Source: a virus
Length of the DNA: 64,000 bases
Direction: 5' to 3' (one strand)
Virus record (IMG/VR): IMGVR_UViG_3300006853_000001
Every line of letters begins with the position of its first letter. Position 1 is the first letter of the stretch. Below are positions 13,516 through 30,569 of the stretch, one piece after another. Under the pieces are notes generated by a model that saw only the letters and a list, made by a program, of their open reading frames with translations, searched no databases and was not told the DNA's origin. The position numbers were made by a program, and so were the translations under genes.

Positions 13516-13524
13516 TGATATAGT
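13516..13524 (+). promoter_or_regulatory. extended -10 promoter element TGATATAGT
   Basis: The element lies in the 110 bp gap upstream of the gene at 13620 and has the same 9-mer as the element at 123-131 (-). Confidence 0.45.
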
Positions 13525-13619
13525 CATACATAGGCGGCCCCGACCGTGCAGTCGCGACCCGAACTCCGGCCCGGCCGGGGCCCACACTCCCCGGCTACGC
13601 ACGTGCCAACTACGACGAG

Positions 13620-14411: not shown

Positions 14412-14420
14412 GACGGCAAC

Positions 14421-15443
14421 TTGCTGTGTATAGTTGAGGGCCCGGACGGCGCGGGTAAGTCCACCCTCGTCGCCGCGGTCGCCGCCGCCCTCCGCGCCAC
14501 GTGTCCCCACGATGATGTGGAGGTCTGGCACGCCGGACCTCCACCTCCGGGCGCGCACCCGCTGGACCTGTACGCCCGGCCGCTGTACGACTATCGGCCG
14601 GGCGTCGGTCGTCACATCATCTGCGACCGGTGGCACGTCGGGGAGTGGGTGTACCCCGCCGTGTTCGGTCGCCCGTCCCGGGCGGATGAGGCGAGTCGCC
14701 GGTGGCTGGACATGTTCCTGCAGGCGCGTGGCGCCCTGTTAGTTCACGTGAACCCGCCGCTGTCACGTGTCGAGGCGCAGCTCCGAGCACGTGGCGACAG
14801 CACGGTTGTCCCCGGACAGCTACCCGAGCTGTTTCTCCGTTATCACGCCGAGGTCGCCCGGTCACGGCTGCGCCGGTGGCACCTGACACACGACAGCTGG
14901 TCGGCGGCCGGCGTCGCCGAGGTGGTTCTCGAGGAGGCACGACGCGCGGAGGATGAGGCTATCCCACTCGGCCGATTCGCCACGTACGCGGGTCCTGCGC
15001 GACCCCACTACCTCCTGCTGGGCGACGTGCGCCACCAGTTGCGCGACCGTGTTGGTTCGTTTTTAACACCTCGGCACAGCGTCGCGTACGGTCCGGCGTT
15101 TGGGCCGTATCCCGGCACGTCAGGCCACTACCTGTTAACGTACCTTCCCGAGGCGATGTTTCACGCCGGCGGCGACGCGGGCATCGGCGTCGCGAACGCC
15201 TGCGACGTGGATGACTGGAAGGATCTGTGGGACGTGCTCGGCGAACCACTGATCGTGACGCTGGGCGTACGTGCGACACGTGAGTTAGGATCATTCGCAC
15301 GAGGCTCGACGCCTCACCCGCAGTACGCACGGCGATTTCACTTTAACGACGCCGTCAGGTACGGTCAAGCGATCCACCGCGCGGGGCGATACGGGGAGCA
15401 CGTGCGTAGGTGGCACGATGTCGATACCACCGGTGAGAACTAA
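14421..15443 (+). CDS. fusion protein: thymidylate/dNMP kinase-like P-loop domain plus UDG-superfamily-like domain
   Basis: The N-terminus has VEGPDGAGKST (Tmk P-loop) and ICDRW (the DR motif). The C-terminus (about aa 185-320) carries UDG-like motifs in the expected order: YLLLGDVRHQ, GPAFGPYPGTSGHYLL, VANACD, IVTLGVRA, TPHPQY. Confidence 0.55.
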   Translation: MLCIVEGPDGAGKSTLVAAVAAALRATCPHDDVEVWHAGPPPPGAHPLDLYARPLYDYRPGVGRHIICDRWHVGEWVYPAVFGRPSRADEASRRWLDMFLQARGALLVHVNPPLSRVEAQLRARGDSTVVPGQLPELFLRYHAEVARSRLRRWHLTHDSWSAAGVAEVVLEEARRAEDEAIPLGRFATYAGPARPHYLLLGDVRHQLRDRVGSFLTPRHSVAYGPAFGPYPGTSGHYLLTYLPEAMFHAGGDAGIGVANACDVDDWKDLWDVLGEPLIVTLGVRATRELGSFARGSTPHPQYARRFHFNDAVRYGQAIHRAGRYGEHVRRWHDVDTTGEN

Positions 15444-15457
15444 GGTGAGAGATTAAC

Positions 15458-15667
15458 GTGAACTGCTCGAAGTGCAGCAACGGTGACTTACCGTACGAGT
15501 GGACGGTTACGGCGGACGGCGACCCACGGGACATCATACTGTATCGTGGTCCCGACGAGTTAGCCGCGCGTGCGACGCTCGCCGCGGAGACGCCGGTCAA
15601 CGGCTGGGGTGCGACGCTCACGCGTCGTCACGTCGGACCGAGTGAGATCATGGCAACCAACCGCTAG
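15458..15667 (+). CDS. hypothetical protein
   Basis: 69 aa ORF with GTG start after GAGAG. Confidence 0.45.
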   Translation: MNCSKCSNGDLPYEWTVTADGDPRDIILYRGPDELAARATLAAETPVNGWGATLTRRHVGPSEIMATNR

Positions 15668-15682
15668 ATAAGGAGATGCAAC

Positions 15683-16522
15683 GTGGGTGCTCTCATCGAG
15701 ATCGCCAACGGCGTTCGTGGCTACGGCGACTACGTGAATCACGTGCTCAACCGATCACATCCAAGAACCGCGCGCGGCCTGCCGACGCGTGACGCCGGTT
15801 TTACGGTGGTTGTGCTTCACGACGTCACCCAGTCGCTGCCACTCGATGTCGGTCGCCAGGTCAGCACAAAAATCGCGGCGCTGGAGGCGCTTCAACTCGT
15901 TGGAGGTCACTCGGATCCTCGGTCGCTGGTAGACGCCGCGCCGTTCTTCGGCGAGCTGCTGGAGCCCGACACCCGACGGTTTCACGGCGCATACGGCGAC
16001 CGAATTCGCGGCCAACTGGTCCAGGTTGTGACGAAGTTGCGCGAGGACCCCGGCTCACGGCAGGCCGTCATCACCCTGTGGGATCCGTGGCTGGACAACC
16101 AACCGGGCAAGAAGGACTACCCATGCACCGTTGCGATTGGGTTCGAGGTAGTTCGAGGTCGAGGCCTCGACATGAACGTCACCATGCGCAGTCAGGATGT
16201 CTGGCTCGGAACGCCCTACGACTGGTTCCAGTTCTCACTCCTTCAGATGACCGTTGCCCGACTACTTGGGGTCGAACCGGCGCTCTATCATCACACAACA
16301 TGGTCCACACACATCTACGAGCGTGATATCACAAAGCTCGACTGGCTGACCGATCCGCCACCCGCCGAGCATCGAACTCAGCAACCTCACACCGGTGTTG
16401 GAGAGGTTCTCGGCAACCCACACTCGACCACCCAGCGGGCACGTGACCTGCTGTTCGACGCCGTGAAGCCCGATGAGTTGTCCGTCTCCGAGAGGATCTT
16501 GCGTGACTGGCTCACCACCTAG
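15683..16522 (+). CDS. ThyA-family pyrimidine nucleotide C5 methylase/hydroxymethylase (Asp at the Asn177-equivalent position)
   Basis: RQAVITLWDP, YPCT (catalytic Cys148) and MRSQDVWLGTPYDWFQF align to E. coli ThyA SAWN, PCH and QRSCDVFLGLPFNIASY. Codon 16220-16222 (GAC) places Asp where ThyA has Asn177. Confidence 0.7.
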   Translation: MGALIEIANGVRGYGDYVNHVLNRSHPRTARGLPTRDAGFTVVVLHDVTQSLPLDVGRQVSTKIAALEALQLVGGHSDPRSLVDAAPFFGELLEPDTRRFHGAYGDRIRGQLVQVVTKLREDPGSRQAVITLWDPWLDNQPGKKDYPCTVAIGFEVVRGRGLDMNVTMRSQDVWLGTPYDWFQFSLLQMTVARLLGVEPALYHHTTWSTHIYERDITKLDWLTDPPPAEHRTQQPHTGVGEVLGNPHSTTQRARDLLFDAVKPDELSVSERILRDWLTT

Positions 16523-17027
16523 GGTTCGCCCGTCGTGGGACGAGACGTGGCTCGCGCAGGCGCGGGCCATCGGCGCGCGCAGCCTCTGCTCGCGCGCCCA
16601 GGTCGGTGCGGTCATCGTGTCCTCGGACAACAGCCGCACGTGGGTCGGGTACAACGGCGTCCCGGCGGGGTTCGAGCACAACGATCGGCCGTGCGTCGAG
16701 TGGTGCCCGCGCGCCCAGAAGTTTCGGCGCTTTAGCCCGTCATACGACGACTGCTACACGGTGCACGCGGAGGTCAACGCTCTGCTCAAGATGGACCGCG
16801 AGCTGGGTCGCGGCGGCACCCTCTACACGACGGGTGACGTCTGCTTCGCCTGTGCTAAGGTCGTAGCCAACTCGGGTCTGGCGACCGTGGTCGTGCTGTC
16901 GGACGGCCTCGCCGCCCACCGCAAGCCCGACGACACGTACCGGTTTCTCGAGAGGTGTGGGTTATCGGTCATCGTGCACACCGGTAACCTATCCGGTTCG
17001 GGTCCCGTGGTCACGTATAACGCGTAG
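16503..17027 (+). CDS. dCMP deaminase (cytidine/deoxycytidylate deaminase family)
   Basis: The zinc motifs HAEVNAL and CFACAKVV are present, and WDETWLAQA is a typical ComEB/dCMP deaminase N-terminus. GTG 16503 follows GAGAGGA; ATG 16473 is an alternative start. Confidence 0.75.
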   Translation: MTGSPPRVRPSWDETWLAQARAIGARSLCSRAQVGAVIVSSDNSRTWVGYNGVPAGFEHNDRPCVEWCPRAQKFRRFSPSYDDCYTVHAEVNALLKMDRELGRGGTLYTTGDVCFACAKVVANSGLATVVVLSDGLAAHRKPDDTYRFLERCGLSVIVHTGNLSGSGPVVTYNA

Positions 17028-17036
17028 GAGAGTAGC

Positions 17037-18863
17037 TTGATCCTCGATGATGTCGAACTTCACCTCGTCAACTCACTGGATGAGGTGCTCGCCTTCAGAG
17101 AGTGGCTCGGCCGGCGCCGCGAGAACGATGCGATCGCCTTCGACACGGAGACGTCGGGTCTGGATACGATCCGTGACCGAGTTCGCCTCATCCAGTTCGG
17201 CGACGACGCGGCGGGGTGGGCGTTCGACCGGGATGACTGGCTCGGCGTGGCCCGCTGGGTGTTCGCCAACTGGCAGGGCGACCTCATCGGACACAACGCG
17301 CCGTTCGACACGTCGATGCTGGCCAACTCGTGTGGTATCGAGGTGCCGCGTCACCGGACTCATGACACGATGGTGCAGTCACGAGTCAACGAGTCACACA
17401 TGTCGATGGCGCTCAAGTCACAGGCGGCCCGCCACGTGGACCCGCGCGCCGCCGGGCTGCAGCTCGAGCTCGGCGGCACGGGCTTCGACTGGGCGACGGT
17501 ACCGGTCGAGTTCCCCGAGTACTGGACGTACGCCGCGCTGGACCCGGTGCTGACGTACGCTCTGGATGGCTACCACCGACCGCGCGTCCTGTCCGAGGCG
17601 CCCGCGGCGTACGACCTGGAGATGGCCGTCCTCTGGGTGGTCGAACGCATGCGAACCTACGGTACCCGGGTGGACGTGCCCTACGCGCAAGAGCACCACG
17701 GTAAGTTGGAGCGGTACTGCGAGAGCGTGGAGCGGTGGTGTCGAGACACGTACCGGGTCAAGCCCGGCTCCAACGCGGCGATCGTAGGTATCCTCGAGGA
17801 GGAGGGCTACCGCTTCTCGAAGGCGACCCAGGCCGGCGCGAAGTCGCTGGATGCCGAGGTGCTGGAGGGCATCGATCACCCGCTAGCGACGGCCGTCCTC
17901 GGTCGCCGGCGCGCCCAGAAGATGTCATCCACGTACCTCCGGTTCTACGTCGAACGCTCAGACGTGAACAGTCTCATTCACCCGTCGTTCAACACACTGG
18001 GCGCCCGAACGTCGCGTATGTCGTGCAGCGACCCCAACCTGCAGAACCTGCCGCGCGCCGGCTCCACGCCGTTCGCCGACCTGGTGCGTAACTGTATCGT
18101 AACGCGCTACGGTCCCTGGGATCCCAACCTGACCCCGGTTGCGAACGCACTCACACACGGCTGTCTGATCATGTGCGACTTCGACCAGATCGAGATGCGG
18201 CTGCTGGCGCACTTCGCGCAGGAGTTCGCGATGATCGAGGCGTTCAAGCTGCCGCAAGACTTCTTCGTGACACTTGCTCGCCAGATCTACGAGGATGAGA
18301 CAATCACTAAGCAGGACAAGCGCCGCCAGATCACCAAGAACGCGGGTTACGCCAAGATCTACTCGGCAGGCGTTAACAAGTTCGCCCAGACCGCCGGGAT
18401 CCCGGTACCACAGGCGCGTTCGTTCCTCCAGCGCTTCGATCAGCTCTACCCGGGTGTGCGGCAATTTCAAGACACCGTTCTCGAGCTAGCCTTGGGGCAG
18501 CAAGCCACCGAGGGCATCGCGTACGCCCGGTCACCCTTCACCAACCGCCGGTACGTCGCGGATCGCCGCAAGGAGTATGCCCTCATCAACTACCTCACCC
18601 AGGGTGGTGCGGCCGAGATCAACAAGATGAAGCTGGTGCAGCTTGACGCGGCCGGTCTCGGCCCGTACATGTTCGCGACCGTTCACGATGAGGTACTGCT
18701 CGACGTACCCGGCGAGCATGTCCTCGACGCGGTGCACATCCTACAGAAGATCATGAATGACGACCAGATGCTGTCGGTGCCGATCACCGCGTCCGTGTCG
18801 TTCGGCGAGAGGTGGGGGTCCAAGCTCGACTGGAGTGAGCAGCACGCGCAGGTCGCCGCGTGA
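17037..18863 (+). CDS. DNA polymerase I (family A) with 3'-5' exonuclease domain
   Basis: The exonuclease motifs are AFDTETSGLD, HNAPFDTSML and YAALDPVL. The polymerase motifs are A (CDFDQIEMRLLAH), B (RRQITKNAGYAKIYSAG) and C (ATVHDEVLLD). Confidence 0.9.
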   Translation: MILDDVELHLVNSLDEVLAFREWLGRRRENDAIAFDTETSGLDTIRDRVRLIQFGDDAAGWAFDRDDWLGVARWVFANWQGDLIGHNAPFDTSMLANSCGIEVPRHRTHDTMVQSRVNESHMSMALKSQAARHVDPRAAGLQLELGGTGFDWATVPVEFPEYWTYAALDPVLTYALDGYHRPRVLSEAPAAYDLEMAVLWVVERMRTYGTRVDVPYAQEHHGKLERYCESVERWCRDTYRVKPGSNAAIVGILEEEGYRFSKATQAGAKSLDAEVLEGIDHPLATAVLGRRRAQKMSSTYLRFYVERSDVNSLIHPSFNTLGARTSRMSCSDPNLQNLPRAGSTPFADLVRNCIVTRYGPWDPNLTPVANALTHGCLIMCDFDQIEMRLLAHFAQEFAMIEAFKLPQDFFVTLARQIYEDETITKQDKRRQITKNAGYAKIYSAGVNKFAQTAGIPVPQARSFLQRFDQLYPGVRQFQDTVLELALGQQATEGIAYARSPFTNRRYVADRRKEYALINYLTQGGAAEINKMKLVQLDAAGLGPYMFATVHDEVLLDVPGEHVLDAVHILQKIMNDDQMLSVPITASVSFGERWGSKLDWSEQHAQVAA

Positions 18864-18952
18864 GACGCCCGAGCTGGCCTCCCGTGGTCACGCAGATCCT
18901 CGTGATCTGGGCGTGCGTTACCCTCATCATCCTCTACGTGTGGTTCTCGTGA
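18860..18952 (+). CDS. 30 aa membrane peptide
   Basis: The translation is VRRPSWPPVVTQILVIWACVTLIILYVWFS. It has GTGA overlaps at both ends, with the polymerase stop and the RuvC start. It is too short for the ORF track. Confidence 0.35.
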   Translation: MRRPSWPPVVTQILVIWACVTLIILYVWFS

Positions 18953-19425
18953 CCGCGCCACCCACCCGGCCGCCCGCCTTCGTGATCGTCGGCGTCGATC
19001 CCGGCATTCACGTGGGTTTCGCCCGGCTGTGGGCCGACGACCACTTCGAGGCGTGTGAGTTAACCCGCATCGAAGCCGAGGACGCCCTGCTGACGACGTT
19101 CTACGGCAAGCATCCGCCCGGCATCATCGCGATGGAGAGGTTTACGATCGTAGGTGGTCGGGCGCGAACATCTCAGCCAGACGCGTTGGAGCTGATCGGC
19201 GCCGCGCGGTTCATCGCCCGCCACCACGAACCTACCGCGTTTCGTGTGCAGGGATCCGCAGACGCCGACCCGTTCGCCGCGCGTGACGTGCTCACCCGGC
19301 TGGGCTGGTGGATCATAGGTGCACCCGACCACGTGCGTCGTGCGTGTGGCCAGGTCGCCCTGGCGTTGTCCCTCACCGATCCGGCGAGGTACGTTCGCCT
19401 GCTGGGACCCGAACCGCTAACCTGA
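18949..19425 (+). CDS. RuvC-like Holliday junction resolvase
   Basis: FVIVGVDPG carries the first catalytic Asp, followed by IAMERF (Glu) and then DH..RA near the C-terminus. The start is GTG 18949; the ORF track start at 18757 lies inside the polymerase gene. Confidence 0.65.
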   Translation: MTAPPTRPPAFVIVGVDPGIHVGFARLWADDHFEACELTRIEAEDALLTTFYGKHPPGIIAMERFTIVGGRARTSQPDALELIGAARFIARHHEPTAFRVQGSADADPFAARDVLTRLGWWIIGAPDHVRRACGQVALALSLTDPARYVRLLGPEPLT

Positions 19426-19466
19426 TAGGATCTAACTCGCACCGTCCGATGATCGAGGAGTCGACG

Positions 19467-19631
19467 ATGAGTGATGCGTCTAACATCGGTGACACGCAAC
19501 CCACACGTGAGTTTCCACCGAACCGCACCGTAACCGAGGTCGAGGCGACCCGACTGGTCCGAGAGTTTCGAGTCGCCTACCCGGCGTATCACCGGTTCAT
19601 CGACCAACACGTTCGAGAAGACGTAGCCTAG
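19467..19631 (+). CDS. hypothetical protein
   Basis: ATG 19467 lies 6 nt after GAGGAG; 54 aa. Confidence 0.45.
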   Translation: MSDASNIGDTQPTREFPPNRTVTEVEATRLVREFRVAYPAYHRFIDQHVREDVA

Positions 19632-21649
19632 TGCCTCACGCCGACGTTCTCGGCGACCGGATCGCACTAACTACACGGTGGACCGAGGCTGAGCTGGTCA
19701 AGCAAGTTCCCGGTGCCCGCTGGAGCCCGGACGATAAGATGTGGTTCGTACCACTTACGTGGGCAGCGTGTCTCCAGCTACGCGGTCTGTTCCGCAACAC
19801 CCTCGAGGTCGGTGACGAGCTGGCCCTGTGGTCACAGCGGGAGTGGTCGCAGCGGGTCGGTCCGTCGCTGGAGATGCGTAGCCGGCTGACACGTGTGGAC
19901 GGCTGGAGTGACAGGCTCTACGACTTCCAGACGGCCGGAGCCGAGTTCCTCCTCGGGTGCGGCGAGGGTGGGTTACTCGCGGACGACTTAGGTCTCGGTA
20001 AGACGGCACAGGTACTAGCTGTCATCCAGGGACTAACAGAGCTGGACCCAGCCGACGCCCTGCCGGCCCTGGTGATCTGCCCCAACGGTGTGAAGCTGGG
20101 GTGGGAGCGTCAGATCGCACTGTGGCAAACGCCGGTGACGCCCTACGTGCTCACCGGCGGCACGGTAGGTCGACGTAAGATGCTCGAGCGGGCGCGTCAG
20201 GACCCGGGTGCCGTCGTGATCGTGAACACCGAGGCCGTGCGGCTGCTGGCCCGGCTCGCGCCGTACGGGTCCACACGCCTGAAGCGCTGCCGGGAGTGCG
20301 ATAAGAAGCGCGGTGAGGAGAAACTCACACCGGCACGCTGTGAGGTTCACCCTAAGCCGCTGAACGGTTTCGGGTTCCGCACGGTGATTCTGGACGAGGC
20401 GCACTCGATCGTCAACCCGCTGTCGAAGCAGACCCGGGCGTGCTGGTCCGTCGGTCACGACCCGTCGGTGCGACGTCGCTGGGCGACCACCGGAACGCCG
20501 ATCGCGTCGAACGTCGGCGACGTCTGGTCGATCATGCACTTTCTCGTACCGCGTGAGCATCCCACTAAGACACAGTTTGTGGACAGATATGCCTTAAGAG
20601 CGTGGAACGCGCACGGCGGTCTCGACATCGTAGGTGTCGCACCCGACACACGTGATGAATTCTTTCGCATCATCGACCCACGGTTTCGCCGGACGCCGAA
20701 GGCCGTCGTACTCGACCAGCTTCCCCCGATCGTGCGATCGGTCCGCTGGGTGGACATGTCTCCGCGCCAGGCGTCCGTCTACCGTGAGATGCACGCACGA
20801 AGCATTGCGGTGACCGATGACGGTCAAATCCTTGTGTCGCCGAATAACCTCGTGAAGGCGACCCGGTTGCTACAGCTGTCTTCGTCCTACGCGAACGTGG
20901 AGTGGGTCGAGCAACTCATCCCGACCCGTGAGATGTGTGACTGTGCGGCTAACGGCGGTACGCGCCACGTCACCAACTGTCCCGGGTCCGAGTGTTGGTG
21001 CACGACCACGGGCGACAAGTATCACAATGAAGGATGTTCTCGGCGACTGAAATGCGTTGTGACGCTCGCCGAGCCGTCCAGCAAGCTGGATGCGCTGGAG
21101 GAGGATCTACTGTCACTCGGAGGTCGGCGTGTCGTTGTGGCCGCCGAGTCGCGCCAGCTCATCGGCCTCGCCGAGAAGCGACTCATCAAGTTGAAGATCC
21201 CGTTCGGCGTCATAGCCGGCGACGTCGGCGACACGTATGAACGTCAAGACGTCATCCGCCGGTTCAACGAGGAGCGCATCCAAGCTGTGCTACTCACGAT
21301 CGGCGCGGGCGGCGTCGGTCTCGACGGTCTCCAGTGCGCCGACACGCTGCTGTGCGTCCAGCGGTCGTGGTCCATGCTCAAGAACGTGCAGCTGGACGGT
21401 CGCGTGCACCGGATCGGATCAGAGGTACATGACTCGGTGCACATCGTCGAGTACGTAGCACGTGATACGATCGAGGAGACGACGCTCTACCCACGACTTG
21501 TCAGTAAGTGGGAGCGGCTCGACGAGATCACACGGGACCGGGCGAGACTTCACGCGGCGGGCATCAAGCCCGACGAGGCGTACCGTCTCGACCTGGCGGA
21601 GAGCAGGGTTGTGAACAGCTTCCTAGGACTACCGGAGAGTTCCGAATGA
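19631..21649 (+). CDS. SNF2-family (SF2) helicase/translocase
   Basis: Motif I is LADDLGLGKTAQ, motif II is VILDEAHSIVN, followed by ATTGTPIASNVGDVWSIMHFL. The C-terminal lobe has GGVGLDGLQ and QLDGRVHRIGS. Cys-rich insertions are present. Confidence 0.85.
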   Translation: MPHADVLGDRIALTTRWTEAELVKQVPGARWSPDDKMWFVPLTWAACLQLRGLFRNTLEVGDELALWSQREWSQRVGPSLEMRSRLTRVDGWSDRLYDFQTAGAEFLLGCGEGGLLADDLGLGKTAQVLAVIQGLTELDPADALPALVICPNGVKLGWERQIALWQTPVTPYVLTGGTVGRRKMLERARQDPGAVVIVNTEAVRLLARLAPYGSTRLKRCRECDKKRGEEKLTPARCEVHPKPLNGFGFRTVILDEAHSIVNPLSKQTRACWSVGHDPSVRRRWATTGTPIASNVGDVWSIMHFLVPREHPTKTQFVDRYALRAWNAHGGLDIVGVAPDTRDEFFRIIDPRFRRTPKAVVLDQLPPIVRSVRWVDMSPRQASVYREMHARSIAVTDDGQILVSPNNLVKATRLLQLSSSYANVEWVEQLIPTREMCDCAANGGTRHVTNCPGSECWCTTTGDKYHNEGCSRRLKCVVTLAEPSSKLDALEEDLLSLGGRRVVVAAESRQLIGLAEKRLIKLKIPFGVIAGDVGDTYERQDVIRRFNEERIQAVLLTIGAGGVGLDGLQCADTLLCVQRSWSMLKNVQLDGRVHRIGSEVHDSVHIVEYVARDTIEETTLYPRLVSKWERLDEITRDRARLHAAGIKPDEAYRLDLAESRVVNSFLGLPESSE

Positions 21650-21777
21650 CCGACAGAGACGACGATCATGACACCTCGATCCACCCCGGTCTGGTCCTAC
21701 TCGGACTTCTCATAGCGGTTGGCATGGTGTGCACGACGGTGATTTGGTGCGTGCTGGCGGTGGCCAGTGGCTGCTGA
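21646..21777 (+). CDS. small membrane protein
   Basis: ATGA overlap start after GGAGAG. The transmembrane segment is LVLLGLLIAVGMVCTTVIWCVLAVA. Confidence 0.45.
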   Translation: MTDRDDDHDTSIHPGLVLLGLLIAVGMVCTTVIWCVLAVASGC

Positions 21778-23197: not shown

Positions 23198-23200
23198 CGA

Positions 23201-23659
23201 TTGACGACAAGTGATGCGCCCGTCCGATACCGTAAGCTGACCGTAGGTCGGTCGGTGCTGCTGGCGCTGGCGGACCGACAGATGCACGGACCTCCGGAAC
23301 GGGATGACTTTCCGTTCGGCGCCCGGCGGCAGAATAGGTGTGATGACTGTGGTCTAACCGTGTCGCCCGGGGACCTAATCGTACAGGCGAGACGTCCGGG
23401 TCTGCAACCTGTGCTTTACGTACATGAGACGTGTCCCGGCGATGACGCTCTGTTTCGTCAGATCGAGTGGCTACGCCGGTGGGAAGGGGCCGACATCATC
23501 TCGGCGTGGACGCAGGCGCGCGTCACCCGGCGGTGCGGAAGCTGCGAGCGGGACATGTTCGTAGGTGACTGGATCGCACTCGTGCGGCGCCCCGGTCCCA
23601 TGCGCGGCGGAGGCGAGAAGCACAGCGACTGGAAGTGCGAGAGGTGCGTTAAGCTGTGA
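23201..23659 (+). CDS. zinc-ribbon protein
   Basis: 152 aa ORF with CDDCG...C and CGSC...CERC pairs; TTG start. Confidence 0.45.
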   Translation: MTTSDAPVRYRKLTVGRSVLLALADRQMHGPPERDDFPFGARRQNRCDDCGLTVSPGDLIVQARRPGLQPVLYVHETCPGDDALFRQIEWLRRWEGADIISAWTQARVTRRCGSCERDMFVGDWIALVRRPGPMRGGGEKHSDWKCERCVKL

Positions 23660-24468
23660 CCGGAGCAACCACCGAGATGTCGACGTCGGCGCTGTATAAC
23701 TATGACACAGTGGCGTGGCTTATTCACGCTGTGTCGAAGGCGGGTAAGTCGACGCTGTCCACGACGGCACCCATGCCCATCTGCGTCCTGGACGCCGAAG
23801 GAGGTTGGAAGTTCGTACGAGAGGCCGGCTACCGAACGGGCGTTCCGCTGCGTCGTGTGGAGTGGGATCCGCTGGTTGGTCCGCCTCCCCGCTGGGACGG
23901 AACGTGGGACTTCTGTCACGTGATCGTGCGTAAGTGGACCACACTCACCGCAGCGTATCAGTATCTATCCCGGACCGACCAGCACGACTTTAGGTCGATC
24001 GTGCTGGACTCCATTACGGAGGCTCAGCGGAGGCTGAAGCGACACCTCGCACCCAGCGGAAGCATGAAGGGATGGGAGAACTGGGAGGCTTTACTGGTCA
24101 ACATGGATCAGTTGATCCGTGACATACGCGACCTGGTGCTGCTGCCCAACCCCAATCCGCTGCGCTGCGTGGTCTTTATCGCCGAGACGGCGATGAAGGA
24201 TAACCAGTGGCGTCCCGCGATGCAGGGACAGATCGGGCATTCGCTGCCGTACCTGGTCGACTGCTGCGGCTACCTGTTCACCAACGTAACGGTGGATGAC
24301 CAGGGGACCACGACGGCGCGGTTTAAGCAGTTGATGATCGCCGAGGGCATCAGTCCTACGATCGTGTCGGGCGAGCGGTTCCAGGGTGCCCTGCCCGACA
24401 TCGTGGACCACCCACACATCGGTAGAATGATGGAACAGCTGTTCGGTCCGCCGAACGGCTCGAGCTAG
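23656..24468 (+). CDS. RecA-like NTPase (AAA_24 / Sak4-like recombination ATPase)
   Basis: Walker A is HAVSKAGKST, followed by PICVLDAEGG and then VLDSITE (Walker B). The GTGA overlap start and the position next to the nuclease and SSB genes fit this call. Confidence 0.6.
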   Translation: MTGATTEMSTSALYNYDTVAWLIHAVSKAGKSTLSTTAPMPICVLDAEGGWKFVREAGYRTGVPLRRVEWDPLVGPPPRWDGTWDFCHVIVRKWTTLTAAYQYLSRTDQHDFRSIVLDSITEAQRRLKRHLAPSGSMKGWENWEALLVNMDQLIRDIRDLVLLPNPNPLRCVVFIAETAMKDNQWRPAMQGQIGHSLPYLVDCCGYLFTNVTVDDQGTTTARFKQLMIAEGISPTIVSGERFQGALPDIVDHPHIGRMMEQLFGPPNGSS

Positions 24469-24476
24469 GAGGATGT

Positions 24477-25190
24477 ATGACCGGGACAACGTGGGGCGCA
24501 CTTAAGAAGCAGGCGGACGATGCCACCCGCCCGCTACCGGACGACTGGTACCGTCTCGTCTGCGCGAAGGCGACCTGTAAGACCGCCAGCACCGGGTCCT
24601 TGATGATCTACTGTCAGTTCAAGGTGGATGACGGACCACAATTCGGCAAGTCGGCGTTCACCAACCTGGTGTTCTCGCCGGACAACAGCTTCGCACTTAA
24701 CCTGTTCTTCCGGAAGCTGGCGGCGTTCGGCTTCGACGACCAGTTCTTCCGGGAGCTGGAGGCCGCGGAGCTCGACGTCGAAGACGGCCTCCAGATCATC
24801 GCCGCGCAGCTGCCGGACCGGGCCGTGAAGGCCGAGATCGGGACGCGTCAGTTCCAGGGACAAGATCGCAACGAGATCGTGTCATTTGCTGCGGTGCCCG
24901 GCGCCAACGCGCGACCGGTCGTGGACAAGCAGTTGCTGTCGGGAGCTCCGGCCGGTCCTCCGGTCCCGGGAGGACCGGTCGGCCCACCCGCCGGTCCGCC
25001 GGTGCCCGGAGCTTCCTCTGTGACGCGGTCCGGTCCTCCGGTTCCGGTGGCTCCCGTAGTTTCCACATCTCCGGTCGCCCCGACCACCCCGACGGTAGGT
25101 CAGGCCCCGACGGTCGGGGCGGGACCGGCGACGCCGTCGGCGTCACCGGTCACGACGCCGGCACAACCTCCGCCGGTGCCGACCTTCTAG
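24477..25190 (+). CDS. single-stranded DNA-binding protein (DUF669-like) with Pro-rich tail
   Basis: PLPDDWYRLVCAKATCKTASTGSLMIYCQFKVDDGPQFGK matches the DUF669 pattern. A long PxxP-rich C-terminal tail ends in PTF. ATG follows GGAGGA. Confidence 0.5.
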   Translation: MTGTTWGALKKQADDATRPLPDDWYRLVCAKATCKTASTGSLMIYCQFKVDDGPQFGKSAFTNLVFSPDNSFALNLFFRKLAAFGFDDQFFRELEAAELDVEDGLQIIAAQLPDRAVKAEIGTRQFQGQDRNEIVSFAAVPGANARPVVDKQLLSGAPAGPPVPGGPVGPPAGPPVPGASSVTRSGPPVPVAPVVSTSPVAPTTPTVGQAPTVGAGPATPSASPVTTPAQPPPVPTF

Positions 25191-25217
25191 GACTAACGTG
25201 TAGTACGACCGAGGTGA

Positions 25218-25275
25218 CCGGGTCCGGCGTCGCACCCGCGAGTCGGACCCGGCGCCGGTGCGCGTCGACGCGCAC
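25218..25275 (+). terminator. two stem-loops between the recombination genes and the glycosyltransferase operon
   Basis: A 9 bp stem pairs CCGGGTCCG (25218-25226) with CGGACCCGG (25244-25252). A perfect 18 bp palindrome GTGCGCGTCGACGCGCAC lies at 25258-25275. There is no U-tract. Confidence 0.4.
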
Positions 25276-25303
25276 GTCGTAGACGAGAGACGGTGACACA
25301 TAC

Positions 25304-26434
25304 GTGAAGATACTCATGCTGGTGCCTAACTTCTGGATCTCAGGCACCGTCACGCACATTCGCGAGCTGACGCTCGGCTGGCCGCCGGAGTGGCCGACGC
25401 CGCCGATCGCCGTGCCCACGCGTTCCGGCCGACCGTCCGGTAAGTGGGGACGCGACATCGCCGACGTGAAACGCGCCGACGCGACGACGTGGCGCCCGGA
25501 CCACTGGGGCACACCCGCCGAGATCGCACACCTGGCGCGTAACTTCGATCTCGTACACGTCAACGAGGCGGAGACGACACCGAGCTCGCAGGAGTGGTGG
25601 TACCAGACGCTCGAGCTCCTCGAGACGCCGTGGACGCTCCAGCTGAACGGAAACCTGTATCCGACCGTCAACTGGGACCGTATCCTCCGCTCGCCGCGCT
25701 CTACGGGCGTCATCTGGCAGACCCCGGGCAACGTGCCCGAGGCGCTCGTCCGTGACGACCGCGCGACGCTGGTGCCGCTATCTCGTCCCTGGAACCTGCG
25801 GTCGGCGACGTATGATCCTCCGGCCGGACCTGGAGGTGATAAGCCGCCGCTGGTCGGCTTCCACGGTCGTCTCGCGCCGGACAAGGGTGTGGCGCACGTT
25901 GCCGCGCTGGCCAAGCACCTCGACGTCGATGTCTGTCTTCACGGCGCGTCGCCGGGTGGCGGCTACCCCTACGCCTACGGTCTTCAACACACGTACCTCG
26001 GCGACCGGAAGTTTCGCGCGGAGGAGCCGTGGACCGCGCCTGATCTACCTCTACACTACGAAGGTCCCTACGGGGAGGGTTACGATGTGTCGCTGCATCA
26101 CACCGTGCACGTGTCGGCGACGCGTCTGGGCTTCTCGGCGGGTACCGAGTTCGCCCTGCTGGAGGCCATCGACGCGGGTTGTCGGATCGTCGTACCGGAT
26201 CACATGACCGAGCCCGCGACGCTCGGCGTGCTGCGGCAGTGGACGTACCCGTGGGAGCCGCGCGGCCTCAAGACCGCGCTGTCCGGCGAGCTGCGGTCGC
26301 TGAGTGAGGCGGTAAACCACGCGCTATACGTATCGTCATATGACGCCTCGCACAACCGGCAGGTGCTCGCTACGCACCACAACCCCGCCGCACTGGCCTG
26401 TGCGTTCTTCGGCGTCGCGGCATCCCGGATCTAG
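25304..26434 (+). CDS. GT-B fold glycosyltransferase (GT4-like)
   Basis: The N-terminus is MKILMLVPNF. LVGFHGRLAPDKGV is present, and the C-terminus has an E-x7-E-like motif (GTEFALLEAIDAGCRIVVPD). Confidence 0.65.
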   Translation: MKILMLVPNFWISGTVTHIRELTLGWPPEWPTPPIAVPTRSGRPSGKWGRDIADVKRADATTWRPDHWGTPAEIAHLARNFDLVHVNEAETTPSSQEWWYQTLELLETPWTLQLNGNLYPTVNWDRILRSPRSTGVIWQTPGNVPEALVRDDRATLVPLSRPWNLRSATYDPPAGPGGDKPPLVGFHGRLAPDKGVAHVAALAKHLDVDVCLHGASPGGGYPYAYGLQHTYLGDRKFRAEEPWTAPDLPLHYEGPYGEGYDVSLHHTVHVSATRLGFSAGTEFALLEAIDAGCRIVVPDHMTEPATLGVLRQWTYPWEPRGLKTALSGELRSLSEAVNHALYVSSYDASHNRQVLATHHNPAALACAFFGVAASRI

Positions 26435-26450
26435 AACGGAGGTGATAAGT

Positions 26451-27806
26451 ATGCGTGTTGGGTACGGAAAGATAGGAAGATCGATGCCGCTCAGCATCAC
26501 GAAGTGCGGTAGTCTCGGCGGCGACGTGGAGATGGCCGCGACGATCGGCGAACTCGCGCGGCGCAACCCGGAGTCAGACTTCTACCTCATCGGAAAGAAC
26601 AGCGGCGAGGAGCCCACGTCGGTCGGCCTGCCGAGCAACGTGCACAACCCGTGGATCAAGTGGGGTCCGCAGCTGCTCGACGCCAAGCGCCGTACCGGCT
26701 TGAATCACGCGAACTACTCCGTGGCCGACCACCTCGCTCTGCAAGACATCTATGACTCGGTAACGCTCGACTTCATAACGAAGCTCGACGGCATCGTACT
26801 CTGGGCCGGCCAGCACGGTACGACCAACGTGCCGCTGCCCGGCGTACGTGAACCCGGTAAGTACACCAAGCCACACGACTGGTCGGCGCACTACGTCGCG
26901 TTTCTGACACGAGCGATCAACATCTGGCGCGACGTCAACCCGTGGAAGCGCGAGGAGATCTGGCTCAACTCCGATCCGCGCAACTACCTCAAGTTACGCG
27001 ACCTCAAGTGGCCGCTGCGTCACCCGGTGCTCGCACAACACACGTATCATCACAGGATCAAGCACGCGCGGTACGGAGACCCGGGCCCGAACGGCGCTTT
27101 TGAGGAGTGGTCTGCCACGTGCGACCTCGGCGTCGAGACGCCGAGCGATGTCGATAAGGTGTGGAAGGCGTCCGTGCGGAATGTATACGCCCGGTTGGAG
27201 GTCAACGGTCTCTTGCCCAGCACACCGTTCGGCGACCTGCTGTCGTTCAACGACCGCTGGGAAGATCGCGCGGGGTTCGGCCTCTTCATGAATGAGACGC
27301 GACGCTACGTGCGCCAGGACATAACCCGGTCACACGTAATGCGTGAGTGGGTACTACCACTGGAACCGGCGTGGATTCACGGCACGTGGTCACAGGCCGG
27401 CCAGGAGGAGATCAACCGCGAGATCACCCCGGCACCGTGGGGCGACTACGTACCTAAGCTTCACTCCGTACGCTGTACCTTCACCTCACCGGCCAGCGGC
27501 ACCGGCTGGGCCACGGCTAAGCCGTGGGAAGCGTTCGCGGCCGGTACCGTGTGCTTCTTTCACCCCGGCTACGACGTCCAGGATAACATCCTCGGCGACG
27601 CACCGTTGTGGTTGAAGGACTGGCTGCGCGTCACCTCGCCCGACGAGTTGGTACACCGGGTTAAGCACCTCAGCTCAGACGCGGGTCGCACCGACTGGTA
27701 TGAGCTCGTAGCCGCCCAGCGCATACACTTCAATGACGCCGTTCGGGAGTTACGCTTTGCCCGGCTGATCGAAGCGCGCCTCGGGCTGCGAGGTACCGGT
27801 GACTAG
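26451..27806 (+). CDS. glycosyltransferase resembling T4 DNA beta-glucosyltransferase (GT63-like)
   Basis: By-eye alignment to T4 BGT gives four matches. MRVGYGKIGRS aligns with MKIAIINMGNN. IWLNSDPRN aligns with YLFTDIRL, the catalytic Asp100. NETRRYVRQ aligns with GSFRSGQRE, Arg191/Arg195. AKPWEAF aligns with LRVWETM, Arg269/Glu272. The spacings are similar. ATG 26451 follows GGAGGTGA. Confidence 0.55.
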   Translation: MRVGYGKIGRSMPLSITKCGSLGGDVEMAATIGELARRNPESDFYLIGKNSGEEPTSVGLPSNVHNPWIKWGPQLLDAKRRTGLNHANYSVADHLALQDIYDSVTLDFITKLDGIVLWAGQHGTTNVPLPGVREPGKYTKPHDWSAHYVAFLTRAINIWRDVNPWKREEIWLNSDPRNYLKLRDLKWPLRHPVLAQHTYHHRIKHARYGDPGPNGAFEEWSATCDLGVETPSDVDKVWKASVRNVYARLEVNGLLPSTPFGDLLSFNDRWEDRAGFGLFMNETRRYVRQDITRSHVMREWVLPLEPAWIHGTWSQAGQEEINREITPAPWGDYVPKLHSVRCTFTSPASGTGWATAKPWEAFAAGTVCFFHPGYDVQDNILGDAPLWLKDWLRVTSPDELVHRVKHLSSDAGRTDWYELVAAQRIHFNDAVRELRFARLIEARLGLRGTGD

Positions 27807-28593
27807 GGGATCGTCGGGCGCCACGTTCCGGTACTACCTCGAGAGCGTCGGCAAGATGTGCCGGACGGACGACGGGCGTACATCACGCCAGGGACTGTGG
27901 TTACGTCAGCACCAGTCTCCCGCCGTTCCGAAGGTACTGTCGGTATATGAGCACGGCTACCAGATGGAGCGGCTCGACGACATCTCTTACATGTGGTTAA
28001 ACCACCGTGTGGTGCTCGCCGGGATCGTGGAACAACTCGAGCAGCACGTGTGGTCACAGTCCGCCGAGGTCGAGTGGTCACAGCAGGCGACGGTCGACAA
28101 GGTGGCAGACCTACTCGGAATGTTCGACGTCGGTGTTGAGGTTCAGCTGTGGCTGGAAAAGACGCACGAGTCGATCGACTGGAACGCACTTCCACGGTGC
28201 CTAACGCACGGCGACCCGACGCTGGACAACGTGATGTTTAGGCCCGGTACATCCGAACTGGTCATCATCGACCCGGTTCCCGCGACCTCGGCGGTGCCCG
28301 ACATCCGGGCTGTGGACCTCGGTAAGATGCTCCAATCAGCGCTGGGCTGGGAGCGGGTTCGGTACGGCTACCGTGAGGTAACGGGAGCTCTCGACACGCT
28401 CGGTGGCAGTGCGCGAATCAACCCGTACCACGTGCAAACGTACGCGCAAGATGATAACGAGTGGAACGCGGCCGTACTCTGGTGCGTCATTCACCTACTA
28501 CGCACCCTACCCTACCTCGCACGATGTGCGGCACCTAAGGTTCAAGATGACGTGAGAGGCATGATCGGTGACGCAACTACGTTTCTTCCTTGA
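27799..28593 (+). CDS. APH/choline-kinase-fold small-molecule (sugar?) kinase
   Basis: The Brenner motif is present in CLTHGDPTLDNVMF, with the metal-binding Asp in LVIIDPV. Confidence 0.65.
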   Translation: MTRGSSGATFRYYLESVGKMCRTDDGRTSRQGLWLRQHQSPAVPKVLSVYEHGYQMERLDDISYMWLNHRVVLAGIVEQLEQHVWSQSAEVEWSQQATVDKVADLLGMFDVGVEVQLWLEKTHESIDWNALPRCLTHGDPTLDNVMFRPGTSELVIIDPVPATSAVPDIRAVDLGKMLQSALGWERVRYGYREVTGALDTLGGSARINPYHVQTYAQDDNEWNAAVLWCVIHLLRTLPYLARCAAPKVQDDVRGMIGDATTFLP

Positions 28594-29179
28594 TCTGGAT
28601 GGCACACTCGCCGACACCGACGCGCTTAACCGGGAGGCATATCGACGAGTTGGTGTTGAGGTACCGCCGAACGCCGCCGGCTTGTCATACCGTGAGTGGC
28701 TCGGCGATCTGGTCGGTATCGGTGATGTTGAGCGTGTTCACACCGCTAAGCAGGTGTGGTACGGCATCCTGCTGGGTGACGTAGATCCGCACACCTTAGC
28801 TCTGCCGCCGACCCGACTCGCACGTACCCTGCTGTACGGTGATGCTCGGCGGTCGGCGACCGTGTCGTGTCTAACGGCTGCGTCACACGAGTGTGCACGT
28901 ACCCTACTTCGTCGACTAGGTCTAAGCGTACCCGTCAAGCCACAGTTAACGTATGACGCACGACGCGTGATTTTGTCGCGTGCGATGTCCGTCGCCAAGC
29001 ATCGAGGTACCGGTTCCGTGGTATATGTTGATGACATGGGCAGCACCGTCGAGCGACTCACCGAGGACGTTCCGGGTCTCCGGTTGCTGCACTACACCGG
29101 GCAAACCTACGAGCAACTACGCGCCGAGCTCGCCGATGTCTTAGGAGAACTTATCACCAGAGAGTTGAAAACAGCGTGA
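28568..29179 (+). CDS. HAD-superfamily phosphatase/phosphomutase
   Basis: Motif I is FLDLDGTLADTD (DxDxT) and motif IV-like is VVYVDDMG. Confidence 0.7.
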   Translation: MTQLRFFLDLDGTLADTDALNREAYRRVGVEVPPNAAGLSYREWLGDLVGIGDVERVHTAKQVWYGILLGDVDPHTLALPPTRLARTLLYGDARRSATVSCLTAASHECARTLLRRLGLSVPVKPQLTYDARRVILSRAMSVAKHRGTGSVVYVDDMGSTVERLTEDVPGLRLLHYTGQTYEQLRAELADVLGELITRELKTA

Positions 29180-29862
29180 TCGACCACGCCGGGTTGGACG
29201 CCGTGATTCTCGCCGGTGGTAAGAGTGAGCGACTGAACGGGGTGGTACCTCCCTACTTCAAGCCGTTCGTCGTCATCGAGGGCAGGTCGCTGCTGGTCGC
29301 CGCGGTGGATAGCGCGCTGGCGATGGGTGCGCGTCGGGTGATCGTGGTGTCCGCCGGCGAGAACGCCCTGCCGGTGTTTCAACTGGTGGGTCACCGCCCG
29401 GAGATTCGCGTGATGCTGGCCACCGGCGGACCCGGCCGCGCGCTTCGCCGAGGTCTCGAGCTGTGTCAAACACAACGCGTTCTGGTGCTGATGAGCGACA
29501 ACATCCACGGACCCGAGGACGTCTACGCGGTATGCACGGCGGCGAACTACGCGGTCGGCGTGCGAGTCGTTCACCGGGTTGAGGCCGAGAGGTTTACTCG
29601 TCTCCGAGGCGACCGCTGGGTGGAGCGTAGATATGACCAAGACCCGCTCGATGATGAGGTAGCGAAATGGAGCGACGACGCTACACAGGCGGTAACGGTC
29701 TGGTGCGGCCCGCTGGTCATCGACCGGTACCGCGGTCTCAACGCACTGGCCGGCCAGGAGAAGATCGGTCCGGTGCTCAATGAGATGGCGCCCAGCTTCG
29801 CGCTGGTACACGTGTTAACGCAGGATATCGGCACGCCCGACGCGGTACGCCGGGTGACCTAG
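29176..29862 (+). CDS. nucleotidyltransferase (MobA/IspD/sugar-phosphate NTP-transferase fold)
   Basis: AVILAGGKSERL is the LAGGxGxRL signature, and VLVLMSDN is present. The start shows a GTGA overlap. Confidence 0.65.
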   Translation: MIDHAGLDAVILAGGKSERLNGVVPPYFKPFVVIEGRSLLVAAVDSALAMGARRVIVVSAGENALPVFQLVGHRPEIRVMLATGGPGRALRRGLELCQTQRVLVLMSDNIHGPEDVYAVCTAANYAVGVRVVHRVEAERFTRLRGDRWVERRYDQDPLDDEVAKWSDDATQAVTVWCGPLVIDRYRGLNALAGQEKIGPVLNEMAPSFALVHVLTQDIGTPDAVRRVT

Positions 29863-29874
29863 GAAAAATGAGAG

Positions 29875-30057
29875 ATGATGCGAGCAGGTAAGCTGACCCC
29901 GCGCCAGCGCCGGCGCGCGGCTAAGAAGAGTACGGCTGCCGCCGAGCGTCGTAAACACAACTACATCGATCAGCTGATCGAGGCGCGGGCACATCGCGCC
30001 GCGCGTAGGACAATGATAAGTGCAATGCGTGATGCTCGGAAGAAACTGGTGAGTTGA
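29875..30057 (+). CDS. small basic protein
   Basis: 60 aa, rich in Lys and Arg; ATG follows GAGAG. Confidence 0.45.
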   Translation: MMRAGKLTPRQRRRAAKKSTAAAERRKHNYIDQLIEARAHRAARRTMISAMRDARKKLVS

Positions 30058-30569
30058 TGGATCGCCTCGAGGAGATGTTACACGCCCAGCGGGAGCTCCA
30101 GGAGCTGATCAACGGCTACACGCTCGAGAGTCAGTCAGACGAGCTGCGCATCGCGAACATCAAGGAGAGCTACGTCGCGCTTATCAAGGAGCTCGGCGAG
30201 GTTCTGGATGAGATTGGCTGGAAGAGCTGGGCGACCAGTCGTCACATCAACTACGAGGCGGCACGCGGCGAGGTCGTTGACTGCTGGCACTTTCTCATGA
30301 ACCTCGCGCTGCACCTTAACGTGACCGCAGATGACCTGTACGAGGGCTACCGCCGAAAGCGTGAGAAGAACGAGCGACGCCAGCGCGAGGGCTACGACGG
30401 TGTGACGGGCAAGTGCCCGCACTGTCGACGGTCGTACGATGACCAAGGAGTCCGGTGCACCCCGTCGTGTGTCGCGACCGGCGGAACGCCGGCCTGGTGC
30501 GTGGAAGCCGGTCGGCTGGTCGGACCCGGTACACTCTCCGCTACATCAGAAACCACCCACAACACCTGA
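30057..30569 (+). CDS. all-alpha NTP pyrophosphohydrolase (MazG / dimeric dUTPase-dCTPase family) with Cys-rich tail
   Basis: Contains ALIKELGEVLDEIGWKSW and EVVDCWHFLMNLA, the paired acidic helices typical of the family. The C-terminus has CPHCRRSYDDQGVRCTPSC. Confidence 0.6.
   Translation: MDRLEEMLHAQRELQELINGYTLESQSDELRIANIKESYVALIKELGEVLDEIGWKSWATSRHINYEAARGEVVDCWHFLMNLALHLNVTADDLYEGYRRKREKNERRQREGYDGVTGKCPHCRRSYDDQGVRCTPSCVATGGTPAWCVEAGRLVGPGTLSATSETTHNT

Follow-up and report, generated by a model that had tools for sequence, protein, structure and literature searches.

The window analysed here is the whole 64,000-nt stretch of IMG/VR virus record IMGVR_UViG_3300006853_000001 (GC content about 64%), and its positions 14,421 to 30,569 carry candidate genes for a T4-type hypermodification of cytosine, in which 5-hydroxymethylcytosine (5hmC) is put into DNA and then glycosylated. 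The replication and recombination genes of the window lie together on the plus strand between about 11.7 and 32.5 kb, and the candidate modification genes are interleaved with them (Table 1). The initial annotation had seen in one plus-strand block analogs of the steps of the T-even 5hmC system; all the genes it named were found, at or near the positions it assigned. For comparison, 80 related IMG/VR loci were fetched with the PD-(D/E)XK nuclease gene as a neutral anchor, and all genes of the window were mapped onto them. Related loci are cited below by L numbers.

Table 1. Features of the window and of related loci, with the candidate modification genes first
Feature	Coordinates	Strand	Evidence or remark
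Two-domain protein: YorR/thymidylate-kinase-like P-loop nucleotide kinase (N-terminal) and C-terminal part of about 160 residues	14421-15443	+	
C-terminal domain of the kinase fusion (residues about 183-340)	14958-15443	+	
ThyA homolog, predicted dCMP hydroxymethylase (5hm-dCMP synthase)	15683-16522	+	PF00303; gp42-type residues
dCMP deaminase	16503-17027	+	PF00383 3.8e-16; PHROG 174 1.3e-32
GT4-like GT-B, predicted second (sugar-on-sugar or alpha-type) DNA glycosyltransferase	25304-26434	+	Fold
BGT-like GT-B, predicted 5hmC-DNA glycosyltransferase	26451-27806	+	Fold
APH/protein-kinase-fold sugar(-phosphate) kinase	27799-28593	+	PF01636 1.1e-6; catalytic loop HGDPTLDN
HAD-superfamily phosphatase, predicted sugar bisphosphate phosphatase	28568-29179	+	Motifs DLDGTLADTD (I) and YVDDMG (IV)
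Sugar-1-phosphate nucleotidyltransferase	29176-29862	+	PF12804 NTP_transf_3 1.9e-13; PF00483 9.3e-6; LAGGKSERL
All-alpha NTP pyrophosphatase, homolog of T4 gp56 dCTPase/dUTPase	30054-30569	+	PF08761 dUTPase_2 5.7e-17
C5 cytosine DNA methyltransferase pseudogene	31236-32482	+	PF00145; 8-nt insertion at 31443-31450
PolA (family A DNA polymerase)	17037-18863	+	RuvC-like gene comes next
SNF2 helicase	19631-21649	+	
PD-(D/E)XK nuclease	21767-23197	+	
AAA_24 RecA-like protein	23656-24468	+	
DUF669-like protein	24477-25190	+	
HNH endonuclease, outside the pathway	30583-31215	+	PHROG 15471 3.5e-9
Prim-Pol primase-polymerase and D5_N helicase-like genes	6671-9405	-	Divergent from the plus-strand replication block
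Virion-side glycosylation island	38980-43739	-	Three GT2, one GT1-type, one TylCIII-like NDP-sugar C-methyltransferase
L022: nucleotidyltransferase-kinase fusion, then SIS isomerase	14017-16106		RB69/DLP3-style; isomerase PF01380 2e-13
L004: RGP-like and epimerase cassette	11656-13655		Cassette present in many IMG/VR loci
L005: RGP-like and epimerase cassette	11337-13279		
L092: RGP-like and epimerase cassette	11245-12784		
DSL-LC01 (L001): UDP-galactopyranose mutase between two paralogous glycosyltransferase-like genes	22906-26051		Actinomycetia phage
Sixama (L087): kinase and ThyA homolog	11268-12699		Gordonia phage, cultured
GodonK (L088): kinase and ThyA homolog	11016-12843		Gordonia phage, cultured

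The ThyA homolog matched PF00303 (Thymidylat_synt) at 1.3e-23, above the cutoff. It was aligned with HMMER and MAFFT to thymidylate synthases (TS), including one of solved structure, E. coli ThyA and T4 gp42; the residue numbering of E. coli ThyA was checked, and gp42 was taken from the T4 record. At the positions of Leu143, Cys146, His147, Asp169 and Asn177 of E. coli ThyA, the window protein has Asp, Cys, Thr, Asp and Asp, and gp42 has the same five residues. The catalytic Cys is kept in the motif DYPC, of which the longer form KKDYPC shows Asp three residues before the Cys; in RSQDV the Asp169-equivalent is kept. TPYD lies opposite LPFN of E. coli ThyA and FRND of gp42. The Asp at the Asn177-equivalent, reported by the initial annotation, was seen in both alignments, together with the full gp42-type signature. 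This signature was found in all 25 related metagenomic loci carrying the gene, as well as in Sixama gp179 and GodonK gp192.

Specificity for dCMP results from the exchange N177D, hydroxymethyl instead of methyl products correlate with an acidic residue at 143, which admits water, and D169N marks the flavin-dependent 5-hydroxy-dCMP synthases (Lee et al. 2026, PMC13326640). In the MetaGPA study, positions 177 and 147 best distinguished the TS homologs on modified-cytosine contigs from other TS homologs, and Asp177 homologs were enriched on metagenomic contigs with modified cytosine (PMC8670742). Because the five-residue pattern is exactly that of gp42, the ThyA homolog is predicted to be a dCMP hydroxymethylase and not an ordinary TS, a dUMP hydroxymethylase or a 5-hydroxycytosine (5hoC) synthase. 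Synthesis of 5hm-dCMP, taken by itself, appears quite likely. The C5 reaction had been left as hydroxymethylation or methylation; since the Leu143-equivalent is Asp, hydroxymethylation is favoured and methylation is disfavoured. Matches to "pyrimidine hmase" and dUMP-hydroxymethylase entries brought up a dUMP hydroxymethylase, that is a thymidine hypermodification, and this candidate was rejected as position 177 is Asp.

The dCMP deaminase, already called at this place, has the zinc motifs HAEVNA and CFAC in addition to its profile matches. The all-alpha NTP pyrophosphatase had been assigned to the family of dCTPases and dUTPases with a start at 30057. It starts at 30054 and proved to be a true homolog of T4 gp56: the profile of the protein and its orthologs aligned to gp56 by hhalign with a probability of 99.15% and an E-value of 3.8e-19, over 111 columns with 29% identity, and the score of 115.9 stands against a maximum of 21.8 among shuffled decoys.

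The dNMP or thymidylate kinase-like P-loop domain expected at 14421 was recovered as the N-terminal part of a two-domain protein. It matched PHROG 761 "thymidylate kinase" at 2.6e-10, and its family profile matched SPbeta YorR (2axp) at 1.7e-15. YorR is also the reported structural neighbour of the "nucleotide kinase" encoded beside the ThyA homolog of phage DLP3 (PMC13326640). We predict that the domain is a 5hm-dCMP kinase, analogous to T4 gp1. The remaining part of the protein is a further conserved domain that had been overlooked before. Its invariant residues are G201, R204, F227, P229, G235, N259, G282, H299-P-Q301, R305 and F306, and D202 is nearly invariant. Exhaustive phmmer searches gathered 445 representative clusters (50% identity), in which the domain almost always stands in the same kinase fusion; profile searches of Pfam, NCBIfam and PDB gave no match, and no relative was detectable outside the fusion family. 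The domain is present in every ThyA-positive locus with a glycosyltransferase-like gene after the DUF669 gene, and four genomes do not have it: L012, L031, Sixama and GodonK, all of which encode the kinase and the hydroxymethylase but carry no glycosyltransferase gene after DUF669. The domain is thus associated with the glycosylation stage, which we give as an observation without a mechanism. A uracil-DNA glycosylase (UDG)-like fold, proposed by eye from the motif order LLLGD... FGPYPxTSGH... NAxD... LG... HPQ, was not supported: hhalign against E. coli Mug gave nothing, and the score against T. thermophilus UDG 1UI0 (13.9) was within the range of shuffled decoys (maximum 18.5).

Two GT-B glycosyltransferases follow the DUF669 gene. 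An AlphaFold2 model of the 26451 protein was built on 45 homologs, with a mean predicted local distance difference test (pLDDT) of 90.0 and a predicted TM-score (pTM) of 0.89. In a Foldseek search of the PDB with this model, ranks 1 to 5 were all T4 beta-glucosyltransferase (BGT), with E-values from 3.1e-8 to 1e-7 and target-normalised TM-scores of 0.60-0.67. Among the predicted viral structures of BFVD, the best named match was "DNA beta-glucosyltransferase" (4.3e-17, TM 0.70). Between the GT63 family and the cell-wall or protein glycosyltransferases, the structure search therefore ranks T4 BGT ahead. A sequence search of the PDB gave no match, and only the structure prediction was informative. 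At least 575 metagenomic homologs of the protein were found, all unannotated; tblastn searches of the phage collection with the BGT-like protein, the sugar kinase and the nucleotidyltransferase gave no match. Judged by the model, the protein appears to be BGT-like in fold while standing outside GT63 by sequence family, and gene context and co-occurrence point to DNA as its acceptor.

The second GT-B enzyme, at 25304, was likewise borne out and can be specified as GT4-like. Its AlphaFold2 model (pLDDT 90.4) had the alpha-1,2-glucosyltransferase tll1591 as top Foldseek match (4e-10), and T4 alpha-glucosyltransferase (AGT) 1y6g was among the matches at 2e-7. The profile libraries gave no match for this protein. 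Only 18 homologs were found, several of them on contigs as long as those bearing the BGT-like homolog. In L091 and L092 the GT4-like gene stands between those of the helicase and the nuclease. A 371-aa protein of L009, encoded between the nucleotidyltransferase and the BGT-like gene, was checked for being a GT4-like homolog and could not be detected as one (hhalign probability 0.5%).

Directly after the BGT-like gene is the trio of sugar kinase, HAD phosphatase and nucleotidyltransferase genes, which had been proposed to make a dedicated nucleoside diphosphate (NDP)-sugar donor. The successive overlaps from the BGT-like gene to the nucleotidyltransferase gene are 8, 26 and 4 nt, the first being that of the kinase start with the BGT-like stop, and this suggests a single operon with translational coupling. 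For the HAD enzyme the identification comes from its motifs only; its profile support is very weak (NCBIfam 0.027), and its positional equivalent in L009 has a weak PF00702 match. The nucleotidyltransferase has an ortholog in L009 at 2.5e-38. By phmmer in a database of 25 sequences, the window kinase matched the RB69 gp52 kinase at 4e-6 and the nucleotidyltransferase-kinase fusion of L022 at 4e-8, and the same search detected no similarity of the HAD enzyme or the nucleotidyltransferase to RB69 gp51 or gp53. No SIS-domain arabinose-5-phosphate isomerase was present among the open reading frames (ORFs) of the window that were scanned. In HY126, as outlined for AfhE and AfhF in the pathway account of PMC13326640, a kinase turns the sugar-5-phosphate into the 1,5-bisphosphate, a HAD enzyme turns this into the 1-phosphate and a nucleotidyltransferase makes the UDP-sugar. 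The gene order of the window trio is the reaction order of this Afh pathway, and as a source of NDP-sugar the trio parallels the pathway of known DNA-glycosylating phages (RB69/HY126).

The gene order is conserved among the related loci, DSL-LC01 included: Tmk, ThyA, deaminase, PolA, RuvC, SNF2, PD-(D/E)XK, RecA-like, DUF669, then a glycosyltransferase with variable sugar genes, and then the gp56-like and methyltransferase genes. Co-occurrence was counted in the 26 loci covered on both sides, 18 of them ThyA-positive and eight ThyA-negative. The ThyA-positive loci had the BGT-like gene in ten cases, a different glycosyltransferase gene, DSL_GT, together with its paralog in five, the paralog alone in one and none in two. 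A BGT-like or DSL_GT gene was therefore found in 15 of 18 ThyA-positive and in none of the eight ThyA-negative loci.

The sugar genes in this slot differ between loci. The trio stands beside the glycosyltransferase gene in the window, L009 and L091. In L022, the BGT-like gene is directly followed by a nucleotidyltransferase-kinase fusion and an SIS isomerase with homology to gp55, the arabinose-5-phosphate isomerase of RB69, and arabinosyl-5hmC is accordingly suggested for the L022 phage. The commonest cassette behind the BGT-like gene, present in most loci, consists of an RGP-like protein (PF03214) and an NAD-dependent epimerase. PF03214 is the family of the plant reversibly glycosylated polypeptides (RGP), and this cassette may provide a different, possibly arabinose-type, UDP-sugar donor. 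In DSL-LC01 the slot holds a UDP-galactopyranose mutase, which the paper on this phage took as a cell-wall auxiliary metabolic gene, and the TS homolog was not discussed there. Since the mutase gene occupies this slot and a gp42-type ThyA homolog lies upstream of it, the mutase is more likely to serve as a source of galactofuranose for DNA glycosylation. The cultured SEA-PHAGES isolates Sixama and GodonK carry a "thymidylate synthase" with L143D, H147T, D169 and N177D, which adjoins a short Tmk-like kinase and has no glycosyltransferase nearby; their DNA is predicted to contain unglycosylated 5hmC. The base-modifying core is thus conserved while the adjoining sugar cassette is interchangeable, which suggests that DNA is the acceptor. 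Known DNA-glycosylating phages are organised alike, with a conserved core and variable sugar genes (glycodiversification; PMC13326640).

Six relatives of 43-45% GC (L059, L069, L071, L075, L042 and L076) are without the kinase, ThyA and deaminase module, and their tail genes directly precede PolA. These loci have a single DSL_hyp-like glycosyltransferase-paralog gene after DUF669, at about 12300-13400.

The C5 methyltransferase gene at the end of the block is disrupted, as had been noted. An insertion of 8 nt, TAAGACCG, brings a TAA just before the catalytic Pro-Cys, between GNPP (motif I side) and PCSGF, so that no intact frame joins motif I (FxGxG) to motif IV (PC). By tblastn, the intact orthologs of L004 and L005 were split into two frames at GNPP|PCSGF, and the DNA was also read directly. 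The same insertion is present in L002, an assembly from another sample, and an assembly error was rejected on account of this recurrence. The earlier suggestion that the lesion is tolerated as cytosine is already replaced is weak, as the gene is intact in relatives that share this pathway. The HNH endonuclease gene lies between the gp56-like and methyltransferase genes and is absent there in L004, L005 and L019.

Genes identical to those of the window are on Logan, JGI and ENA metagenome contigs of 90-104 kb, from an uncultured phage. WhiB and DUF932 genes mark an actinobacterial host. By megablast, the whole block had zero nucleotide-level matches among GenBank phages. As the initial annotation said, the candidate genes sit amid replication and recombination genes, and the glycosylation island beside the virion genes is separate from them. 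By its position, this island could act on virion proteins.

Based on homology, fold and gene context, we consider it fairly probable that the locus encodes a T4-type two-stage hypermodification, 5hmC incorporation followed by DNA glycosylation. The T4-style pathway first put forward as a candidate is supported in silico, and those of the proposed checks that could be run came out in its favour. In the first stage, for which homology speaks, the gp56-like pyrophosphatase would convert dCTP and dCDP (and dUTP) to the monophosphate, and the ThyA homolog would use methylene-tetrahydrofolate and water to turn dCMP into 5-hydroxymethyl-dCMP. The YorR/Tmk-like kinase domain and the host NDP kinase would then make the 5hm triphosphate, from which the phage family A DNA polymerase would put 5hm-dC in place of dC, while the dCMP deaminase would maintain the supply of dUMP and dTMP. 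In the second stage, suggested by fold and gene context, the BGT-like GT-B would move a sugar onto the 5-hydroxymethyl group of the DNA, and the GT4-like enzyme would probably add a second sugar or an alternative linkage. The donor for at least one transfer would be made in situ as in the Afh pathway of HY126 and RB69: the kinase of the window would turn a sugar phosphate into the 1,x-bisphosphate, the HAD phosphatase would give the sugar-1-phosphate and the nucleotidyltransferase the NDP-sugar. Resistance to host restriction and to other DNA-targeting defences would be the expected benefit.

Several results weigh against this two-stage pathway. Generic GT-B enzymes come next to BGT in the PDB ranking of the 26451 model from 1.6e-6, within about 50-fold in E-value, and the Foldseek TM-scores of the model to BGT are moderate (0.5-0.67). 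The protein has no Pfam, NCBIfam or PHROG match and so stands outside the GT63 sequence family. The hhalign comparison of its profile with T4 BGT reached a probability of 29% over 54 columns, which cover the C-terminal nucleotide-binding helix only; in this low-confidence alignment, the family-invariant K357 and E360 are opposite the UDP-binding R269 and E272 of BGT. The by-eye match to the catalytic residues of BGT claimed at first is therefore kept in part: the GT-B fold and BGT as best PDB match hold, and of the residues only the C-terminal nucleotide-binding motif is recovered, weakly. For the gp56-like enzyme, the nearest solved structure by sequence is the dimeric, dUTP-specific dUTPase of C. 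jejuni (3.4e-7), and a preference for dCTP or dUTP cannot be read from the sequence, so that its dCTPase role is a putative one. The Fisher p-value of the co-occurrence, about 1e-4, ignores phylogeny. A glycosyltransferase-like paralog of the DSL_hyp type fills the slot after DUF669 in seven of the eight low-GC ThyA-negative relatives, so that the tie of the slot to 5hmC is not an exclusive one. The C5 methyltransferase is full-length in L004, L005, L009, L019, L022, L031 and L040, all of them with this pathway, and this is hard to reconcile with a complete replacement of cytosine; either the replacement is incomplete in the lineage or the methyltransferase has another role. Finally, the virion-side island could in principle consume or share the NDP-sugar.

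The alternative that survives best, which we hold to be rather unlikely, keeps 5hmC in the DNA, fully or partly, and lets the glycosyltransferases and the trio serve virion proteins, host envelope polymers or a small molecule, so that the DNA is bare or otherwise modified. Bare 5hmC seems viable in the lineage, because L012, L031, Sixama and GodonK have the hydroxymethylase signature and no adjacent glycosyltransferase. The window appears to glycosylate something on its virion side too, GT-B folds are promiscuous with generic GT4 enzymes scoring close behind BGT, and a glycosyltransferase-like paralog occurs in ThyA-negative relatives. On the other hand, the best structural matches are DNA glucosyltransferases, and the BGT-like gene was never found without the ThyA module in the covered loci (10 versus 0). 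It also lies inside the replication and recombination operon, the GT4-like gene is between helicase and nuclease in L091 and L092, and the sugar kinase is homologous to the kinase of the RB69 DNA-arabinosylation cluster.

An improbable alternative is that the ThyA homolog is an Xp12-like dCMP methyltransferase, giving 5-methylcytosine DNA that would offer no hydroxyl acceptor, with glycosyltransferases unrelated to DNA. Asp177 alone switches TS to dCMP methylation in the mutagenesis work as cited in PMC8670742, and a pre-replicative 5-methylcytosine would make a post-replicative C5 methyltransferase dispensable. Against this, the Leu143-equivalent is Asp as in gp42 and MilA and not a water-excluding bulky hydrophobic residue, and the exchange H147T matches gp42. 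The TS Pfam match stops at model position 219 of 266, and the C-terminal part of the model is unmatched. Methylation also leaves the co-occurrence with glycosyltransferases unexplained.

The content of the RB69 and DLP3 clusters is very similar to that of the window, with a Tmk-like kinase beside the ThyA homolog, several GT-B enzymes and the three genes for a kinase, a HAD enzyme and a nucleotidyltransferase, and L022 even has the isomerase. This would suit a ThyA homolog acting as flavin-dependent 5-hydroxy-dCMP synthase, with sugars placed directly on the C5 hydroxyl. Such a 5hoC synthase was rejected, as Asn at the Asp169-equivalent was not seen and Asp stands there in each of the 27 relatives examined (DSL-LC01, Sixama and GodonK included), as it does in the window; its chance is very small. 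Ordinary nucleotide metabolism would mean that a normal TS, a dTMP kinase, a dCMP deaminase and a dUTPase raise the dTTP supply of a phage growing in a high-GC host, with the glycosyltransferases as auxiliary metabolic genes. It agrees with the annotation of these genes in DSL-LC01, Sixama and GodonK and with the published reading of the DSL-LC01 mutase as a cell-wall gene, and is the least credible, since Asn177, His147 and Leu143 have each given way to the residue of gp42 and the literature, to the extent cited in PMC8670742, knows no Asp177 TS that prefers dUMP.

Going further than the two-stage pathway, we might speculate, only tentatively, that a large uncultured actinophage lineage replaces cytosine, about one third of all bases at about 64% GC, with 5hmC bearing lineage-variable sugars that are undescribed on 5hmC. 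The window phage would then have a mono- or disaccharide, part of which would come from an NDP-sugar of its own (possibly a pentofuranose) supplied by an Afh-like pathway that lacks the isomerase, and the C-terminal domain of the kinase fusion would be a new required component of glycosylation.

If the two-stage pathway is true, T4-style pre-replicative 5hmC with post-replicative glycosylation reaches beyond the T-even phages of Proteobacteria, into a widespread environmental group of actinobacterial siphophages, as the at least 575 glycosyltransferase relatives in metagenomes would indicate. It would bring in a BGT-like DNA glycosyltransferase family unrecognised by the profile libraries, as well as a hotspot that swaps sugar-donor cassettes (trio; fusion and isomerase; RGP-like protein and epimerase; UDP-galactopyranose mutase), from which new DNA-modifying enzymes and new routes to NDP-sugars could naturally be drawn. 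DNA of this kind withstands many restriction enzymes, and the sequencing and amplification of these phages may be biased by it. The actinophage genes named "thymidylate synthase", "thymidylate kinase", "dUTPase" and "auxiliary metabolic" sugar genes would need re-annotation, including those of Sixama and GodonK, and on these two cultured Gordonia phages the prediction is directly testable. In full-text literature searches, neither 5hmC nor DNA glycosylation turned up for any actinobacteriophage.

Among known systems, the glucosyl-5hmC system of T4 (gp42, gp1, gp56, Cd, alpha-gt and beta-gt) shares with the window the hydroxymethylase signature, the gp56 homolog and the dCMP deaminase. BGT is the closest solved structure of one window GT-B and AGT is among the matches of the other, and T4 gene 42 and beta-gt also lie amid replication genes. 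The window differs from T4 in host phylum, virion type, GC content and its family A polymerase. Its nucleotide kinase is YorR/Tmk-like with the extra domain and not gp1-like, its BGT-like protein exceeds BGT by about 100 residues and does not belong to GT63 by sequence, and a C5 methyltransferase is associated with its module. T4 uses host UDP-glucose, whereas the window carries its own NDP-sugar genes.

The second group of systems comprises RB69, DLP3 and HY126, which have arabinosyl-5hoC, and the Rhizobium phage RL38J1, which has galactosyl/glucosyl-5hoC (PMC13326640). As in the window, a Tmk/YorR-like kinase is encoded next to their ThyA homolog, and several GT-B or GT4-like enzymes go with a kinase, a HAD enzyme and a nucleotidyltransferase for a private NDP-sugar. 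RL38J1 gp151, the second glucosyltransferase of that phage, has the same top PDB match, tll1591, as the GT4-like protein of the window (PMC13326640), and RL38J1 has a UDP-galactopyranose mutase, as DSL-LC01 does. Unlike the ThyA homologs of the RB69-type clusters, that of the window keeps Asp169 and is predicted to make 5hm-dC instead of 5ho-dC. The window also lacks an SIS isomerase in the scanned ORFs, has the kinase and the nucleotidyltransferase as separate genes, and has a BGT-like enzyme as first glycosyltransferase.

A TS homolog combined with a group transferase is a well-established paradigm (PMC13326640, PMC8670742). The phages with 5-carbamoyloxymethylcytosine found by MetaGPA (PMC8670742) likewise have, on metagenomic contigs, an Asp177 TS homolog and a group transferase acting on the hydroxyl of 5hmC. 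There a carbamoyl group is moved by a carbamoyltransferase, whereas in the window a sugar is predicted to be transferred by GT-B enzymes.

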